Positions 4,171-43,086 of a DNA stretch of 63,467 bases are shown here, piece after piece. Each line of letters begins with the position of its first letter. The first letter of the stretch is position 1. The translations under genes were made by a program, and so were the position numbers. The DNA is from a virus. Its lineage: Duplodnaviria > Caudoviricetes. The notes under the pieces were generated by a model. That model did no database searches. It saw nothing but the letters and a program-made list of their open reading frames with translations, and was not told the DNA's origin. Location: positions 1-63,467 of IMG/VR virus record IMGVR_UViG_3300037047_000283; one strand, given 5' to 3'.

Positions 4171-6363
4171 TCACCGGTCTGGCAGTGCAAGTGTTGACCC
4201 ATTGTGCGTCTTGTTAATGGTGGTAATAAGGTCGTCCATTTTCGATATTAGGCTGGCGATCATAGACAATATCCCTATCTCCGGCTTTCTCTCTGGGTCA
4301 AAAGCTGGGCTTGTTCTTCCTCTTACGAATTGATCCTCTCCCCTTCTTTTCAACTCTTGGTTCATCATGTAGTAGGCTTCGCTCTTCGTGTCACCCATCA
4401 CCTCTTGCTTCGAATATTGGTCCTTAAGCCTCGGAGTCTCCCAGACGCTCAAGCTATTTTCATTTAGTTTTCGGGCGCCAGTCATCGCAGCATCGGCTAT
4501 GATGGCGGCTCCTCCAGCGGGTAGCAGGGACAGTGCTGATCCAGCTATGCTTGCCCCTGTTGCACCTGCAGCCGCAGCGGCAGGCTTTCCGCCCGGCAGA
4601 TCAACATCGACATCTGGAAGGAGTGATTTTATTCCTCCCGCGAGACCTAGTCCGCCCATGATTAATCCGAGAGGATTGTCTGTCAGGAACCTTGATCCAG
4701 CCTTTATCGGCTCGCCACCTTTGAGCAGGTGAATGCTGTCGATCAATGCCTCTTTGAACTTGTCCGTTAGCGGTAAAAGCATGTCCCCGACTTCGGTCTT
4801 TGCTTCATCCATCTTGGCGTTGGTGCGCCGATGCAGAGAGCTATCCCCTGTCGCCAGCGCTCCCTCGGTCGTGCTGAATGCTGCGGACCATTTCTCCGGG
4901 TCATTCACCATCGCTTCGATGCCGCCGTATTTTGTTGAGGCGTCTTGTAGCGTCTTGGCGAAGGCCCGCGATTGCGTGACGGTCATGCTTCCGTTCGATA
5001 AGCCGTGAATCTGCGCCGCGATGGAGTCGCTGTCCGTCCCTAGTCCGCTGTCGGACATTCTCTTGATGACGTCGCGGATGTTGCGCGAGGAAGCTCCTTC
5101 TTCCATGCGCTCTTTGATGTCGAGGTAGCCGCCGAGACCTTTGGCGTCTTGCCCACCGAATGCATTCCACATGAAGAGCTGTTGGCCCTTCGACGAACCG
5201 CCGGACGCAATAGAGTTATTAAGGCCGCTGATGATTCCTGAGTTCTGCCCGACTCCTCCCTGCGACCACAGCTTTCCCTGCAGTGCAGCGATGAAGTCTG
5301 AGGTCTCTTTTCCAACACCGGCACCGCCAGACGATCCTGATACTTGCGTCAGGATTTGCTGGTTGACCTTCATGTACTCTTCGATGCGCCCGCTCTCGAC
5401 TGTCCCCTTGTCGGAAGCGATGGTCTTGATTGCCCGCATGTAGGACTTGTATTCGTCCGCGTTCATGCCGGTGGCGGTCTTCGTCCCCCCCATGAAGCTT
5501 GCTGCGGCTTCTCCCTCGATGCCGAAGGTGCGGGCGAACTGCATAGACGTCGTGGTCCCGGTCTGAGCGTTCTTTCCTTCCCACCCTGTGCGTCGACTCA
5601 GGGAGTCGGCCAGCATCGCTTCTTCGACGGGACTGAACCCTAAACCAGTCGCGCCGCCGAAGCCGTAGTTGGCCCCTCTTTTGCTGAGGTCTGTTCTGGC
5701 GACGTCCATTGCCCCAGACTTCGCCATCGAGTCTTGCAGGAATGACATAATCGAGAAACCACCAAGAAGCGCAGCTCCGTAGCCGAGCGCCTTCTTGATG
5801 CCAAGGCCACTACGGGGTTGCTGCTTTTCCATCCCTGAGTTCTGGACGTCGGTGGTGTATTCGTTGAATTCCCCTTGGAACTGGTCTTCTTGGCCTTCGA
5901 GCTGTCCGTAGCGCTTCTGTTGCTGCTTTAGCCGGCGCTGGACCTGCCTCCTCTTGGCTTCGATCTTGGACCGCTCTTGCGGGGAGTCGCTGTTGTATTC
6001 CTGCTGGTCGAGGGTCTTGATCTCCCCCTTCAGCTTTGTGATCTCTTGTCGAACCTTTCCGACCTGTGCTGCGAAGTCAGCCATGTTCTTGCCGAGCTTG
6101 GCGGAGATGGTTGCGGCCTCCTGAAACTGTTTTGCGTTCAGGAGGCCTCCCTGCTTGTCACTGGAGAAGGCGATGCCCTTGAGCCGGTTGATATCATCGG
6201 ACAACCGCTTGACGAGAACAGAGGTTTCCTTGAGTCCGGTCTTTCCGGCCAGTTCGACCGGTTCGCCAAGGTGTTGCAGCGCGTCCTTGGTCTTCTCTAT
6301 GGAAACCTTGGCGGCTGCGACCTGTCTTGCGTCAACATTTATTCCGATGCCAATTCCGGCCAT
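4171..6363 (-). CDS. tail tape measure protein
   Basis: 730 aa, Ala/Gly-rich and coiled-coil, directly after the tail chaperones. Confidence 0.8.
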   Translation of the reverse strand: MAGIGIGINVDARQVAAAKVSIEKTKDALQHLGEPVELAGKTGLKETSVLVKRLSDDINRLKGIAFSSDKQGGLLNAKQFQEAATISAKLGKNMADFAAQVGKVRQEITKLKGEIKTLDQQEYNSDSPQERSKIEAKRRQVQRRLKQQQKRYGQLEGQEDQFQGEFNEYTTDVQNSGMEKQQPRSGLGIKKALGYGAALLGGFSIMSFLQDSMAKSGAMDVARTDLSKRGANYGFGGATGLGFSPVEEAMLADSLSRRTGWEGKNAQTGTTTSMQFARTFGIEGEAAASFMGGTKTATGMNADEYKSYMRAIKTIASDKGTVESGRIEEYMKVNQQILTQVSGSSGGAGVGKETSDFIAALQGKLWSQGGVGQNSGIISGLNNSIASGGSSKGQQLFMWNAFGGQDAKGLGGYLDIKERMEEGASSRNIRDVIKRMSDSGLGTDSDSIAAQIHGLSNGSMTVTQSRAFAKTLQDASTKYGGIEAMVNDPEKWSAAFSTTEGALATGDSSLHRRTNAKMDEAKTEVGDMLLPLTDKFKEALIDSIHLLKGGEPIKAGSRFLTDNPLGLIMGGLGLAGGIKSLLPDVDVDLPGGKPAAAAAGATGASIAGSALSLLPAGGAAIIADAAMTGARKLNENSLSVWETPRLKDQYSKQEVMGDTKSEAYYMMNQELKRRGEDQFVRGRTSPAFDPERKPEIGILSMIASLISKMDDLITTINKTHNGSTLALPDR

Positions 6364-19698: not shown

Positions 19699-19920
19699 AT
19701 GCATTGTGCTCGCCGTGTTCCCCATAGTAAAATGTCTCTTGGCCATTACTTTATGGTCGCTGTCCTGATCGCCTTGGTCGCCATCATCGTCCGCCAGTTG
19801 CCGCACGCTATCGACATGGAGCTGGATATGGCAGATGCTTCCGCGCAGAACAAACGCGCCAGCGTCGAGATGAAAGGAGGCCGCTATGTTTCGTCCGACA
19901 CCACGACGGACCGTCCGTGA
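19699..19920 (+). CDS. small membrane protein
   Basis: One hydrophobic helix (FMVAVLIALVAIIV). Confidence 0.5.
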   Translation: MHCARRVPHSKMSLGHYFMVAVLIALVAIIVRQLPHAIDMELDMADASAQNKRASVEMKGGRYVSSDTTTDRP

Positions 19921-20032
19921 TCCTGTGTTTCGTTGCCATCTCTGCGCGTTCACGACGCGGTGGCGACCTGAGTATGTTAGCCATCTGCTGATGCATGAAC
20001 GGGAAGCAAAAAAGACGGCGAATACGCCATAA
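19886..20032 (+). CDS. 48-aa C2H2 zinc-finger protein
   Basis: Read by hand: FRCHLCAFTTRWRPEYVSHLLMH = C-x2-C-x12-H-x3-H; SD AAAGGAGG. Confidence 0.6.
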   Translation: MFRPTPRRTVRDPVFRCHLCAFTTRWRPEYVSHLLMHEREAKKTANTP

Positions 20033-20373
20033 CGGATAAGCGTCAGCGGCTCCGCCCGCTGGACAGCGCTTGTTATATTTCGGAGGTGAAAAGTGGCTAA
20101 AAAATACAAATTAGAGATGGAACCCTATAGCGACTCGAACGGTGATCCAATCTTTGCAAGCAAGGGGCACCATGATCCAGATTTATTCCTGGATGCGGCT
20201 CGGAAAGAATACGACGATAAGGTTATTGATGGAAAAGTGGAGCATGTCTATCTGCGCTGCACTCCAGCCCCAAAAGACAGCGACCACGGCTATTTGCTGC
20301 ACGATGCAACTCCCGGCCCCGGTGCATTCCCCGTCACTCGGCTGAAAGAAATATAACATCTGATTAGACCGCC
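20026..20373. mobile_element. single integron-type cassette: attC (20026-20078), gene, attI-like site (20351-20373)
   Basis: GCCATAAC...hairpin...GTTATAT; cassette ends GTTATATTTC (20072) and GAAATATAAC (20348) are exact reverse complements. Confidence 0.8.
20093..20356 (+). CDS. cassette-borne hypothetical protein
   Basis: SD GGAGG; stop codon lies inside the TAAC core. Confidence 0.75.
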   Translation: MAKKYKLEMEPYSDSNGDPIFASKGHHDPDLFLDAARKEYDDKVIDGKVEHVYLRCTPAPKDSDHGYLLHDATPGPGAFPVTRLKEI

Positions 20374-29865: not shown

Positions 29866-30063
29866 TCATGGAACACGTCTGCAACGGCTGCCTCGAATCC
29901 TTCTCCTCCAGTCTCTCCCGGTGTCCGCATTGCGGCAGCGATGATTGGGACTGCGTGGAGACGTCCGAACTTGAACTGCGCCGCTCCGGTGGCCTTGACT
30001 GTGACTGCTGATCGCCTGCGCCTGTATGCCCTTCGCATGCAGGCGCATTGCTGTTCGCTTTTC

Positions 30064-30148
30064 AACGATTCGTTAACGGTCGTTGAACGGTCGTTAACGA
30101 ACGGTTCAAGCCCATTACCATCTCCATTACCATTACCATCTCCATCTC
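30064..30148. repeat. iteron-like tandem palindromes (AACG.TCGTT x4) followed by CCATTA/CCATCT repeats
   Basis: aacgattcgtt aacggtcgttg aacggtcgtt aacgaacggtt ... ccattaccatctccattaccattaccatctccatct. Confidence 0.6.
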
Positions 30149-36562: not shown

Positions 36563-36708
36563 CCCGCTGCCTCCTGATCCTGATCTTCCTTGCCTCCCCG
36601 TGCCTCTCCGCCGGGGAGGACTGACACATAACGATTGCGTTTGTGCGGCAAGTGGAGTGCAGACAGCACCAATAATCTGGTTATATTTTTTCAAGAGGTA
36701 TCGAAAAG

Positions 36709-36891
36709 ATGCACAAAATCTTATGTATATTTGGGTTACATGACTACAAAAAGCCTTACGTCAGAGAGCACAAGAGAGAAGTACGTTGTGACCCTCGGCC
36801 TGTGATGGTGACAGATTACGCTGTGCGGAAAACCTGCAAAGTCTGCAGTAAAGATAAGCTGGTAATTCGAGTAGATTGCGAATTAAAGTAA
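36709..36891 (+). CDS. cassette gene 1 (C.FGLHDY..CxxC small Zn-binding protein)
   Basis: Flanked by GTTATATTT / AAATATAAC. Confidence 0.7.
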   Translation: MHKILCIFGLHDYKKPYVREHKREVRCDPRPVMVTDYAVRKTCKVCSKDKLVIRVDCELK

Positions 36892-36935
36892 ATATAACGG
36901 ATCATTATTGACTGGTGAGAGAAGGAGCGAAGCGG

Positions 36936-37241
36936 ATGAACGAATCCACGTTGAATTATTGGTTAGGCGTTCTTCGGGAGTGCTGTCAAAGAGAGGTTAA
37001 CGCTCTCGGTGGGGTGAAGGGAAATCTCCCGTCTCACTATCTGAAATACGGGGATAGTGGAATGAAGAACATCGGGGCTTTAACTGTATCTATCTCCGCA
37101 CACACTGGTAAAAATTGCCAGCAGGTTAGACGCTCACTGCATCAGCTCCGCATTGCGGGAAAAGTACTTTGCTTGAACGGCAAGGGATGTATTTGCCGAT
37201 GGTGGCCCATTGGTATGGCAGAAGAGTTGTTGAACGCCTAA
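36936..37241 (+). CDS. cassette gene 2, winged-HTH-like
   Basis: SD and ATG lie in the attC loop; flanked by GTTAGGCGTT / AACGCCTAAC. Confidence 0.65.
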   Translation: MNESTLNYWLGVLRECCQREVNALGGVKGNLPSHYLKYGDSGMKNIGALTVSISAHTGKNCQQVRRSLHQLRIAGKVLCLNGKGCICRWWPIGMAEELLNA

Positions 37242-37300
37242 CGATTTTAAGCTGTGCCGCTCGACGGCACGAGCGCCTTGTTATGGCGCGGGAGACGAGG

Positions 37301-37441
37301 ATGGAAAACGAAATTGTTGAAAAATGTGAAAAATGTGGGAGTGAAAACGTAGAGGTGCAGTGGGCACCCTTCGGGCCTGACAAATGCGCCGAGCCTGTCT
37401 CTGTGCTATGTCTGGATTGCGGTGCAGATCGGGAGATTTAA
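37301..37441 (+). CDS. cassette gene 3, zinc ribbon
   Basis: CEKCGS..CLDCG; flanked by GTTATGGCGC / GCGCCATAAC. Confidence 0.65.
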   Translation: MENEIVEKCEKCGSENVEVQWAPFGPDKCAEPVSVLCLDCGADREI

Positions 37442-37518
37442 GCGCCATAACGGCTTTAAGCTAAAGGGCTTGCGTTTAATGAAACAGGAAATATGAGACA
37501 CAACGGAGGTTGTTATCA

Positions 37519-37779
37519 ATGGATGAGACACAAAATCCCGCAGAGAGTAGCAAGTCCACTTTGAGCGATTGGTTAGTCCGATTTGGAGACAGGGAAGAAA
37601 CCATTTACAGCGTCGAATTGCACTTGTTGCGCCGTATTGCGGAAGCAAGCAGTGACATGTTAAAGGCGAGGCACTGGCCTGAATTTTGTGATGCTTGCGG
37701 TGGACAAGAAAAGCTGAACACGGCACACGCTGACACTGTTGCCGAATACAATCAATGGCTCTCTGATGGAGAGGGCTAA
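37519..37779 (+). CDS. cassette gene 4, hypothetical
   Basis: SD GGAGG and ATG in the attC loop; stop codon in TAAC. Confidence 0.65.
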   Translation: MDETQNPAESSKSTLSDWLVRFGDREETIYSVELHLLRRIAEASSDMLKARHWPEFCDACGGQEKLNTAHADTVAEYNQWLSDGEG

Positions 37780-37869
37780 CGCTTGAGCGTCACCGTTCGC
37801 GGGTTCTTTGCGGTACGGTGCACAGCGTTGGTTATGCCAGCGCTGCAATTTAAGGAGGTAATAGAAATC

Positions 37870-38073
37870 ATGCCTGAACAAGAATATGATCTGAGACCCG
37901 TTGGTGTTCGATATGTTTGTGATAAGTGCGGAGTTGGCGTAATGACTCCTACTGGAACGATGCTTTGTAGTTATCCTCCACAGTGGCCGCATAAATGTGA
38001 CCATTGCGGAATCATCGAGAACATGCAGGAGAAATACCCAACTGTAAGATACCGGATGCCTGCTGGTTTATAG
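37870..38073 (+). CDS. cassette gene 5, zinc ribbon
   Basis: CDKCG..SYPPQWPHKCDHCG; SD AAGGAGG. Confidence 0.7.
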   Translation: MPEQEYDLRPVGVRYVCDKCGVGVMTPTGTMLCSYPPQWPHKCDHCGIIENMQEKYPTVRYRMPAGL

Positions 38074-38138
38074 CCATAACGATTGCGTTTGTGCGGCTCG
38101 TCCGCACCAGTGATTTTTTAGACCATTGAGGAGGATGT

Positions 38139-38411
38139 ATGCAGGATGTCACCAATAAAGGGAAAGAACTTATCGAACGGTGGAAGGATGCCACCAGAGG
38201 GGAAGAATCCGCTAAAGAGAAGCTACTAAAGGCGCAACGAGAACTACAAACGGCAGAAGAGCATCTTGCTCACTGGCTTCTACCTGAAGACGCCAAGGAT
38301 GGTGAGAAGTTTTGTGTCTGGTATGGCGACTCGTTGATTACCGCCTCGGAGAGTGATACCAACGGGTATGAAGTCACTGTACGAAAACGCGGAACAAGTT
38401 TGATGGTCTAA
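38139..38411 (+). CDS. cassette gene 6, hypothetical
   Basis: Flanked by TTAGACCA / TGGTCTAAC. Confidence 0.7.
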   Translation: MQDVTNKGKELIERWKDATRGEESAKEKLLKAQRELQTAEEHLAHWLLPEDAKDGEKFCVWYGDSLITASESDTNGYEVTVRKRGTSLMV

Positions 38412-38469
38412 CGGATTAAGCGTCACCCGTCTATCGGGCAAGCGGTGGTTAAACCGCGAAAGGATATTT

Positions 38470-38838
38470 ATGCAAGAAATGATTAGCAGGCTGAGAAGCT
38501 ATCAGAACGGAGTGCATGGCCCGTTCTTCCTCGAGGTCGCCGCAAAATTGGAACATATGTGGCGCAGTGCTCAACCGGTAATACCTGAAGGATGCAGACT
38601 GGTGATAGTTCCCCGTCAACCCACTGCTGACGAAACAGAGTATCGGGCGTATCTGGAGAAGTTACAACCTGACACCCTCCGAAATATGATCATTGACTTA
38701 TCGGCAGCACAGAGCGAGCAAGGGGAAGCTCTCCAACTGATTGCTGCGGCATCCCTCGGACAGACAGGGCCAGAGGCGCGAGGCCAGTTAGAGAAGGTCA
38801 AAAAGGTTGCAAAGGGCGCGTTGGCGGAGTCGGTTTAA
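38470..38838 (+). CDS. cassette gene 7, hypothetical
   Basis: Flanked by GTTAAACCG / CGGTTTAAC. Confidence 0.7.
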   Translation: MQEMISRLRSYQNGVHGPFFLEVAAKLEHMWRSAQPVIPEGCRLVIVPRQPTADETEYRAYLEKLQPDTLRNMIIDLSAAQSEQGEALQLIAAASLGQTGPEARGQLEKVKKVAKGALAESV

Positions 38839-39050
38839 CTACTGATTATACCGCCAGTTCGTCGGCCTAACGCTTATTTTAATAAACGGCGAATATCTAA
38901 GACAATCGCACAGTTAATTTTAGTTTCAGCGGATAACAAAATCACGAAAGACCGCCAATACTTGTGATATCATCGCGCCCGGCCACCGTGCCGGGCCTTC
39001 CCTCTCAGCGCCCCTGCGGCCTATTCCTTTCCCCTGCCAAGGAGTTTCCC

Positions 39051-40761: not shown

Positions 40762-40909
40762 TGTAAAAGGCCGGGGCATTGCGCTCCGGCCTCATATCTG
40801 CTATATTTTGACTTTGCACCACCACAGCGGAACATCGCTGGCCACGGGACGGTTTCGGACGTATGTGCGGAGCGGCTCGCAAGAGCATTGCACGCGGCAC
40901 TGTGGCAAC

Positions 40910-40945
40910 AAAAAAGCCTCCATCCTTTCGGGTGGGGGCTTTTTT
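40910..40945. terminator. bidirectional intrinsic terminator
   Basis: AAAAAAGCCTCCATCC-TTTC-GGGTGGGGGCTTTTTT between convergent units. Confidence 0.8.
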
Positions 40946-40950
40946 GTTTA

Positions 40951-43086
40951 TTAGGGCGCAAATTTGAACATTGTCTTCAGTCTGACTTCACTGGATCGGA
41001 CGGAGACCTCGAACACGCACTTGATCGTCCCATCCTTGTATTTTTTAAAAAATGCCACTGTCCTGTTGCCGTCTTTGGTCCGGGTCGCTTCACCGATCTT
41101 TATCGGGCGGCTGATGACTTCTGGTATTCTGGCGACATCCTCTTCTGTGATCTGGATCTGCTTCGCTTCTTTTTCTTTCTCCGCATCCCCGTGGTTATCA
41201 TCGACGTGCCGTATCCGCTCCCTCGTTACCTTGATCGTGTAGTTGTCGACCCTGATGCCGTTTGCGGCTTCTGAAATCTTCTGGGCTTCGGCGCGGCCTA
41301 TCATCCGAATGGTTACAGTTTTGTTCTCCGTCTCTTTGCGGCTCTGGTAGAGCTTTCGCAGTGAGGCGATGGTTCTTGCTACCTCTGGTGAGGCTGCAAA
41401 CTTTCCATCCCTGTCATGGTTTTTGTTGCTCTTCAAGAGGATGGCACCGTGGGCGATTTGCCGCGACTTCTTGACGTAGTGGATCTCTCCGAGAACGTGC
41501 CGGGGCTCCCCGCCTCTGACCTCCGCCTCGATCCGCTTCCGGGTGGCGGCTGCGGTCTCTCTCGGCTTCCGGGGCTTGCCGGCGACCTTCTTCTCTTCCT
41601 TCGCAGCATCCTTCCCCGGCTCGACCTTCTTCTTCGCCACCGTCCGCAGCAGCGCCATCGGGTGCCCGATGCGGCCCTTCGGCTTCTTGCCGTCGCCTGT
41701 GGCTGCCTTCCGCTTCCGCAGCAGCGCGACGAGGGCGTGGTGGTGTCCTTTGGGCGCTGCAGGCGTCTTCTTGGTGCGGCTGTCGTCGTGTTCGCGCACG
41801 ATGGTGCCGTCCTGTCGCGTGTAGGTCTTGACGTGGCTCTTGGCGATCGTCGCATTGCCGCGATTCTTCTTCTGCAGGTACCAACTCTCGAAACCGGTGA
41901 AAACGTGCAGGCTGCACATGCACCACGGATGAACCAACCCGGCCACAGCCTTGAGCGTCTCCTGCCCGTCCTCTCGGCCTCCCGGTACCGCCTTGCCGCC
42001 CTTCACCGGGTGCGCCTTGCGACCGATGTTCATGCCGTTGCCGATCAGCTCCGCGAGGGTGAACACCTTCGGCGTGCCGTCCTCCTCCAGATACAGATGC
42101 TTGCACTGGGCGCAGGCCGTCGGCAGCGGCATTTTGTAGACCAACTGCTTCGGCCCGTGCTGCTCCAGTATCTGCATCGCCTGCCCTTGCTTCTGGGCGT
42201 CGGTGATCTCGAAGAAGGCGACCCGGTCCCAATCGCGGCTCTTGTCGTCCATCGCGTGATACAGCTCCGAGCTGAATCCCTGCCATGTGTTGACCTGCCG
42301 CTCCGGGATGGCGATGCCGAGCGCTTCCTTCTTCTCCCGGTCCAGCACCTTCGCTTGCAGTCGCTGCTCGTGGAAGTCGATCGCCATGTTGCGGATGATG
42401 GTGCGGTTGCGTTCGGCGATGATCTCCCCGGCCAGCTTCGCCGTGTCGTCACCGAGTGCCGTGATGTAGTTCGCGGTCTGCTGCTCCGCGATGGCGATGG
42501 CGTGGACGTCCGGAGTCATCAGCGGCATGGTAGCGGCCAGCTTCATGATCTCGGCAAAGCTGCCGCCCTTCTCGACCGCCTGCCATGCCCGGCCAAAGGC
42601 GTAGGCGTTGTGGATGATGCGGCCTTCGGTTCCGACCGCCAGAGCGAAGTCCTGCGGGGTGACGTCCGGCGCGATCCAGCCTTCCGCCTGCCAGCGCGAG
42701 AGGAGGTCTTGCGGCGGGGTGTAGTCTCCCTGTATCTGCGCGGCGATGAATCCGAACCGGTCCCGGATGACTTGCAGCAGGTCGGCGATCTCTTCTTTTG
42801 TCAGGGGTCGGGTGGGACCGATGGACTTGATCAGCGCCGCTCCCTGCAGCCGTCGCTCGACCGCTTGCTTGATATCGATGGCGGCCAGAGCGTACTGGTG
42901 CCGGAACTGTCGCAGCAGTTCGCGGGTCGGTGCGTCCCGTGGCTCCTTCGGTCCGTCGCAGCTGCAGCCGGCGGCCTTGAGCAGCGCGTCCGCGACTTCG
43001 GCCTCAATCCCCTGTGCGGAGACGAGGCCGAGGACGGCTTTCTGGAGCTGGTCGTTGGTCAGGTTGTGGCTGATTTTGAGTTTCAT
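40951..43086 (-). CDS. MuF-like head morphogenesis protein fused to a C-terminal PBECR (RelE/colicin-fold) RNase-like domain
   Basis: ACAQC..HPWCMC (MuF-like); IRHVDDNHG..QI.IT.ED..RIPEVI..LKTMFK (PBECR3-like). Confidence 0.7.
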   Translation of the reverse strand: MKLKISHNLTNDQLQKAVLGLVSAQGIEAEVADALLKAAGCSCDGPKEPRDAPTRELLRQFRHQYALAAIDIKQAVERRLQGAALIKSIGPTRPLTKEEIADLLQVIRDRFGFIAAQIQGDYTPPQDLLSRWQAEGWIAPDVTPQDFALAVGTEGRIIHNAYAFGRAWQAVEKGGSFAEIMKLAATMPLMTPDVHAIAIAEQQTANYITALGDDTAKLAGEIIAERNRTIIRNMAIDFHEQRLQAKVLDREKKEALGIAIPERQVNTWQGFSSELYHAMDDKSRDWDRVAFFEITDAQKQGQAMQILEQHGPKQLVYKMPLPTACAQCKHLYLEEDGTPKVFTLAELIGNGMNIGRKAHPVKGGKAVPGGREDGQETLKAVAGLVHPWCMCSLHVFTGFESWYLQKKNRGNATIAKSHVKTYTRQDGTIVREHDDSRTKKTPAAPKGHHHALVALLRKRKAATGDGKKPKGRIGHPMALLRTVAKKKVEPGKDAAKEEKKVAGKPRKPRETAAATRKRIEAEVRGGEPRHVLGEIHYVKKSRQIAHGAILLKSNKNHDRDGKFAASPEVARTIASLRKLYQSRKETENKTVTIRMIGRAEAQKISEAANGIRVDNYTIKVTRERIRHVDDNHGDAEKEKEAKQIQITEEDVARIPEVISRPIKIGEATRTKDGNRTVAFFKKYKDGTIKCVFEVSVRSSEVRLKTMFKFAP

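Follow-up and report, generated by a model that had tools for sequence, protein, structure and literature searches.

The prophage examined here carries small gene cassettes with integron-type hairpin sites, and in these cassettes each attC-like site appears to precede the gene with which it moves. The window, that is, the whole stretch of DNA that was analysed (63,467 nucleotides), is one viral record and is classed as a provirus. Judged from sequence comparison, the presence in it of integron-type gene cassettes of reversed polarity is the probable reading, if not a secure one. By their layout, the sites are attC-type and have the features of a bottom strand on the coding strand; the predicted unit is an attC followed by a gene.

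In the textbook integron, recombination of the bottom strand ensures that the gene faces Pc; attC lies 3′ of the gene, and the gene is on the top strand. On the bottom strand, the AAC is cleaved in the R′ box at the 5′ end, and positions 16, 20, and 24, close to L″, are extrahelical (PMC5027507).

Two cassette loci in the prophage

The G+C content is 56–63% over most of the window. It is 49–53% in an array at 36.6–38.9 kb, versus 58–60% in the flanks, and the drop begins at the first attC-like site (site a). This region contains seven small open reading frames on the + strand, encoding 46–122 residues, and the short repeats between them start with YTAACG and mostly end with GTTA. An eighth unit, made of an attC-like site and a gene, is found at 20027–20357. 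Both loci are located at the ends of + strand phage genes and are co-oriented with these. Pfam gave no match above its cut-off for any of the eight cassette proteins; three of them have matches among phage families whose function is unknown.

All features of the two loci are on the + strand. The array opens with site a (36626–36686), which is atypical, with no clear L box or unpaired G, followed by gene 1 (36709–36891; 60 residues, no family above cut-off). Site b (36892–36968) is attC-like with a bottom-strand layout, an L box ATT/AAT, and an unpaired G at 36953. Gene 2 (36936–37241; 101 residues) starts within site b, and its TAA stop is held in the R′ box of site c (37236–37286). Gene 3 (37301–37441) encodes a zinc-ribbon-like protein of 46 residues. 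The attC-like site d (37445–37578) is long, with 134 nt, and its loop holds the start of gene 4 (37519–37779; 86 residues), the TAA stop of which lies in the R′ box of the attC-like site e (37774–37837). Then come gene 5 (37870–38073; 67 residues, phrog_9369), site f (38073–38123), gene 6 (38139–38411; 90 residues), site g (38406–38454), attC-like with weak pairing, and gene 7 (38470–38838; 122 residues), which ends in an R′-like GTTTAAC (38833–38839). At the 20-kb locus, the attC-like site i (20027–20078) of the single cassette uses in its R′ box the stop codon of the phage gene at 19886–20032. It precedes gene 8 (20093–20356; 87 residues, phrog_10472), which ends with ATATAAC (20351–20357).

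Sites a (36626–36650) and f (38073–38097) have an identical 23-nt 5′ half (from CATAACG to GCGGC) and different 3′ halves. Site f is decayed; it has a T run in terminator-like sequence, has lost the GTT arm, and is, like site a, devoid of a clear L box.

A conserved non-coding tail (38839–38962) follows the last crossover. The last AAC box is followed by about 125 nt that are common to the window (38833–38962) and to the array of a relative at a different locus, the one matching the 20-kb locus (L018, 2748–2875). The first 16 nt are also present 3′ of the single cassette at 20357, and a promoter-like site is found in the tail on the − strand (38905–38876). The tail (38839–38962) was considered as an attC or attI and was rejected, as it does not fold (z of 0.16 and 0.76) and its pattern is confined to one relative lineage.

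A scan for promoters and terminators gave counts near shuffle expectation. An Rfam scan of the window between 30 and 45 kb gave sub-threshold noise only; Rfam contains no attC family. Nested palindromic repeats of the CGTTAACG/GTCGTTGAACG type occur on both strands at 30060–30100 and are possibly operator or origin-like. At a junction of convergent genes (40861–40984), sub-threshold Rfam matches to threonine and phenylalanine leaders were obtained on both strands (29–32 bits, for a gathering score of 55). This junction is probably a bidirectional terminator.

Layout and strand of the sites

The first-pass annotation had quoted three + strand strings in which an unpaired G in the 3′ arm is followed by three paired bases, a 5-nt spacer, and GTT. 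All three are in place, in sites b, c, and d ending at 36968, 37286, and 37578, respectively. On the + strand, these sites consist of RYYYAAC, a spacer, a 3-bp L box, a stem, the unpaired G, three paired bases, a 5-nt spacer, and GTT, the unpaired G being 16 nt from the 3′ end of the GTT heptamer. The triplets of the 5′ and 3′ arms pair as ATT/AAT in b and as GCT/AGC in both c and d. In site c, the R′ box is followed by an 8-nt spacer, GCT, a 6-bp stem, the loop, the returning stem, the unpaired G, AGC, a 5-nt spacer, and GTTATGG. Site d is built likewise, except that its loop is long. TAAC/GTTA pairing is found in b, c, d, e, g, and i, and the heptamers fit the RYYYAAC/GTTRRRY consensus at 5–7 of 7 positions. 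The combination of L box, extrahelical G16, and 5-nt spacer is present in b, c, and d; sites e and i are a 2-bp variant, and sites a and g are outside this layout.

The pairing of the L box is kept through double changes, with ATT/AAT in b, GCT/AGC in d, and GTT/AAC in a site of related loci described below (the family site). The 3′ arms of these three sites are otherwise alike. Protein homology was ruled out as the cause of the likeness between b and d, as genes 2 and 4 align over 9 residues only (E 0.23). Since these genes are otherwise unrelated, the likeness of the arms belongs to the DNA site and not to the protein.

Natural references were provided by the aadA1 attC of plasmid R100, read on the coding strand, and by nine class 1 attCs cut from plasmid cassette junctions. 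The aadA5, blaOXA-10, and smr regions and that of a gcu were left out before model building, their attC ends being unclear or interrupted by insertion sequences. In 9 of 9 class 1 attCs, the non-gene strand reads RYYYAAC, 5–6 nt, L′, stem, stem, unpaired G or C, L″, 5 nt, and GTTRRRY. The premise that a G in the 3′ arm marks the bottom strand was thus borne out, this geometry being on the strand opposite the gene in all nine plasmid sites. The layout parse and these controls likewise uphold the proposal that the coding (+) strand is bottom-strand-like at b, c, and d. The canonical polarity, with the position-16 base on the antisense strand and attC as the last element of the unit, was not found here.

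Parser, folding, and covariance model

The layout parser is permissive, with 32 matches on the + strand and 19 on the − strand scoring at least 6 across the window, and its ranges were set after the sites had been seen. It called the bottom strand of all nine controls; on their top strand it called nothing in six and gave scores of 2.75–4.25 in three. Scores on the + strand were 8.25 for b, 8.75 for c, 13.25 for d, 13.75 for e, 9.5 for i, and a weak 4.25 for a, while g was not called. The only window site called on the − strand was e, with 8.25, below its + strand score. When the sites were shuffled 2000 times with the R boxes kept, a parse as good or better was obtained 7 times for b, 6 times for c, and never for d, e, or i. 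It was obtained 309 times for a, and the parse of this site is therefore not above that of shuffled sequence.

Single-strand folding was also compared with shuffled sequences. Site c gave the best hairpin among b, c, and d (−13.5 kcal/mol, z of −2.54). The z values were −1.74 for e, −1.87 for i, −3.26 for a site of a related contig (L032, 4457–4522), and −4.87 for the aadA1 control. Sites b (z of +1.06) and d (z of 0.00) and the 61-nt family site (z of −0.12) fold no better than shuffled sequence. One site of another related contig, L030, has ATT instead of GTT. In view of the weak folds and of the missing L box or GTT arm at some sites, some of the weak or incomplete ones have probably decayed.

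A surrogate covariance model standing in for the IntegronFinder attC model was built from the nine class 1 bottom strands; it has 9 base pairs and its E-values are rough. The top match in the whole window was site e on the + strand, with 17.8 bits (E 0.016). When the array was searched alone, e also gave 6.2 bits on the − strand, and g gave 9.6 bits on the + strand and 5.7 on the − strand. Matches on the + strand were 6.6 bits for c, 4.9 for b, and 3.2 (partial) for d; a 41-nt match on the − strand within site b (36935–36975) had 9.5 bits, and site i had no match. In related loci, 6 of the 7 matches with E ≤ 0.01 were on the coding strand (17.8–27.7 bits), and the seventh, in L032, was on the opposite strand (20.9 bits). 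Of all 22 matches with E ≤ 10 in these loci, 15 were on the + strand and 7 on the − strand. The orf3 attC of TJE1, from a published phage CALIN, gave 12.6 bits on the non-gene strand, in agreement with its sequence and with the parser.

The strand that an attC model would report had been named beforehand as a check of the polarity. Put to the surrogate, this check returned the + strand for site e and the related loci; it was weak for b, c, and d, with the − strand match in b. As far as such a model can tell, it supports the + polarity for the class and is weak for these three sites.

The opposite-strand match in L032 lies at 4844–4943, in an array that otherwise has the + polarity. Its L region pairs perfectly, and a position-16 bulge is present on neither strand.

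Unit boundaries in related phages

With the coding strand being the bottom-like strand, the mobile unit would be C + attC + gene + ...RYYYAA. Predicted junctions are at AAC boxes and often use a TAA stop codon. The attC is accordingly positioned as the 5′ leader of the gene, the TAA stop of which is the last codon of the predicted unit.

Up to a CCATAAC box that includes its stop codon, the phage gene at the 20-kb locus is common to the window and to a relative, G001; directly 3′ of this box, no similarity remains. Site i and one gene (20027–20357) are found there in the window, and a 2.3-kb array with four attC-like sites in G001. Homology returns after the terminal RYYYAAC. At the G001 site matching the 36.6-kb array there are no cassettes, and the flanking phage genes are about 100 nt apart. 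The G001 array (L018, 491–2760) has genes for a zinc-ribbon protein, for a small protein, and for a DNA methyltransferase; it also has a two-gene unit, preceded by an AT-rich, promoter-like stretch.

A second comparison is provided by contigs L030, L032, and L033, together with the near-copies L034 and L035, which contain a near-identical block composed of a 61-nt attC, the family site mentioned above, and a homologue of gene 4. In L030, L032, and L033, the block has three different left contexts, in which unrelated sequence ends with AAC directly before it. On the right, the block ends in these three contigs with GGGCTAAC, a GGCTAA/C junction cut before the C, beyond which they diverge. Site d is homologous to these 61-nt sites. 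As a shared attC and gene are found in differing contexts, the moving unit is an attC and then a gene. The claim that the attC of each gene is the one 5′ of it is thereby sustained, with unit boundaries at the 5′ AAC, and the reverse arrangement recurs in other phage and metagenome contigs, as expected of the distinct class that had been proposed. Orphan DNA methyltransferase cassettes are present in two relatives, G001 and L032.

These comparisons bear on the canonical polarity, in which the + strand would be the top strand, the attC would belong to the upstream gene, and crossover would occur at the 3′ G/TT. Such an arrangement would account for the stop codons in the RYYYAAC box just 5′ of each hairpin, like those of ordinary cassettes, and for the 9.5-bit match on the − strand of site b. 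However, it is the 3′ arm of the + strand that has the unpaired base, and the attC travels with the downstream gene. The first attC of the 20-kb locus would have to belong to the conserved phage gene, with which it is not conserved, and start codons located within the sites would be severed from their genes. This polarity, already disfavoured, is regarded as very improbable.

It may also be asked whether the sites still function. They could be attC relics that no longer undergo site-specific recombination and are kept as 5′ leaders or N-terminal codons, the R boxes offering microhomology for the exchange of phage modules. The number of weak or decayed sites (b, d, f, g, and the 61-nt family site) fits this proposal, as do junctions with R′ only in L030 and L032, and contigs L036–L039, where the homologue of gene 4 is present without a recognisable attC. 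Relics would not be expected to maintain L box pairing via double changes, to include good hairpins with the full layout (c, e, i, and L032 4457–4522), or to show AAC boundaries in at least four contexts, and this alternative is considered unlikely. Cassettes of reversed polarity, some with decayed sites, are preferred.

Start codons within the sites

The first-pass annotation had placed the Shine–Dalgarno sequences and ATG codons of genes 2 and 4 (36936 and 37519) between the attC arms, with reading frames crossing the 3′ arm. The sequence confirms this for both genes. Gene 2 has a single homologue, the N-terminus of which is the same; a TTG at 36951 is a second candidate start for this gene. 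Gene 4 has 17 homologues, 12 of which have 72 residues and start with MNDLL or LNDLL. As these shorter proteins start at the position of TTG 37561 in the window, the ATG at 37519 gives a 14-residue extension that is seen in few relatives. In the family, the terminal loop contains the Shine–Dalgarno sequence, the unpaired G is the last base of the TTG start codon, and the L″, spacer, and R″ are read as codons 2–6. The first-pass annotation further suggested that the attC doubles as a hairpin controlling translation. The weak predicted folds of the start-codon sites b and d and of the 61-nt family site speak against this role.

The R″ box of site c (GTTATGG) includes an ATG (37282–37284) in the reading frame of gene 3, and this gene may therefore also start inside its attC. 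The R″ box GTTATGG and the leader that follows it are common to site c and to the second site of G001. In a distant copy of gene 4 (L039, 1397–1414), the gene starts with ATG AGT GAT TTA CTA GCT; the pattern of L″ and spacer is kept and ACT replaces the GTT of R″. To judge by these codons, this segment looks like a fossil attC arm retained as coding sequence.

Scans of viral contigs with the single proteins of genes 2 and 4 gave no match. No match was found in the GenBank phage collection for the window region, the gene 4 family, or gene 8, and gene 5 gave distant zinc-ribbon matches only.

Integrase and class of the array

The only tyrosine recombinase of the window was rejected as an IntI, with 28.6 bits against a TIGR02249 cut-off of 265. 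In 10 other viral records, no IntI was found above the cut-off; five had no match at all, and three of those five are at least 90% complete. No integron integrase was thus found in the 11 viral records examined. A complete integron would have intI and attI beside the array, and neither was recognised here; the sequence that follows the array lacks an att-like fold. By the rule given in PMC4889954, a CALIN is defined by at least two attCs located within 4 kb on the same strand where intI is absent. Sites b, c, d, and e are within 1 kb on the + strand without intI, with site i at the second locus, and the array was classed as a CALIN on our own site definition, not that of IntegronFinder. Genome contigs were scanned for hosts and integrons with the gene 4 family and with a phage protein, and both scans failed to reveal a host genome or a bacterial integron containing these cassettes. 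An alignment scan of metagenome contigs gave no match, and a second metagenome scan gave two small contigs only.

The absence of IntI from all 11 records, and of these cassettes from bacterial integrons in the genome-contig scans, would be natural for a separate hairpin-cassette system that only resembles attC and is served by another recombinase. Yet the match to attC is detailed (RYYYAAC/GTTRRRY, 3-bp L box, unpaired position 16, and 5-nt spacer), a model made from class 1 sites only finds the related sites with up to 27.7 bits, and no tyrosine recombinase at all was matched in five of the phages. A separate system is held to be decidedly unlikely, and the integron-type reading is retained below.

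Discussion

Like canonical cassettes such as aadA1 of In2 (R100), the units described here have inverse core boxes, a spacer, a 3-bp L box, an unpaired position 16, and a variable loop, with a stop codon in the RYYYAAC box and arrays of small promoterless genes. Unlike in class 1 cassettes, where the strand bearing the G is antisense and attC comes after the gene, this strand is coding and attC comes before the gene. Toxin-antitoxin cassettes of chromosomal integrons have genes opposed to the array, with their own promoters, and are exceptions in ordinary arrays. As in the present units, the gene is not on its usual strand with respect to attC, but here every cassette at both loci is reversed and start codons are found inside attC.

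In phages, attC arrays without intI have been reported as CALINs (Qi et al. 2023); the open-access text terms them typical and describes orphan DNA methyltransferase cassettes and recombination by IntI1 of 5 of the 6 phage attCs tested (PMC9892861). The present arrays are similar to what that text describes in consisting of attCs without intI and, in relatives, in having methyltransferase cassettes. They differ in polarity, the TJE1 orf3 attC being canonical by parser and model, for a comparison that covers this one site and the main text on 17 CALINs. Insertion of cassettes outside attI is also documented at attG secondary sites, simple sites with an AAC/GTT triplet (Loot et al. 2024, as cited in PMC12901181). 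As far as that citation goes, the insertions proposed here resemble these in lying outside attI at AAC/GTT triplets, and differ in that the targets are TAA/C stop codons in phage operons and that the link to IntI is by analogy. The open-access text that was searched contains no statement of a reversed gene/attC polarity in phages and no arrays with every gene on the bottom strand and a start inside attC. Thus, phage attC clusters are known, and the reversed polarity is a variant without description in that text.

In the proposed mechanism, units would insert at 5′-AA/C-3′ sites, cut after AA, just past the stop codons of phage genes, which would act as attG-like secondary sites. Because the phages encode no integron integrase, it is proposed that one supplied in trans by the host may exchange units between phages, by analogy with attG sites and with the activity of IntI1 on phage attCs. 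Expression of the cassettes may occur by read-through from phage promoters, as suggested by the co-orientation of both loci with the flanking phage genes. In a classical integron, the units would, by the textbook rule, be antisense to Pc.

A wider scenario can be sketched tentatively. Phages would keep their own pool of reverse-polarity cassettes, and transcription of the operon would expose the hairpin on the mRNA-sense, non-template strand. The attC would supply the ribosome-binding site and start codon, and host IntIs would shuttle units at TAA/C stop sites; in a bacterial integron, the units would be silent, antisense to Pc. As a whole, this scenario is possible and rather doubtful.

If the reversed polarity is real, these cassettes would form a coherent class of opposite polarity, so far in phage contexts only, that breaks the rule that the gene faces Pc. 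Automatic annotation that pairs an attC with the upstream gene would mis-assign such units. Recombination of the integron type would serve non-integron operons too, and accessory genes of phages, for small zinc-ribbon proteins here and for orphan DNA methylases in relatives, would be exchangeable as attC units.
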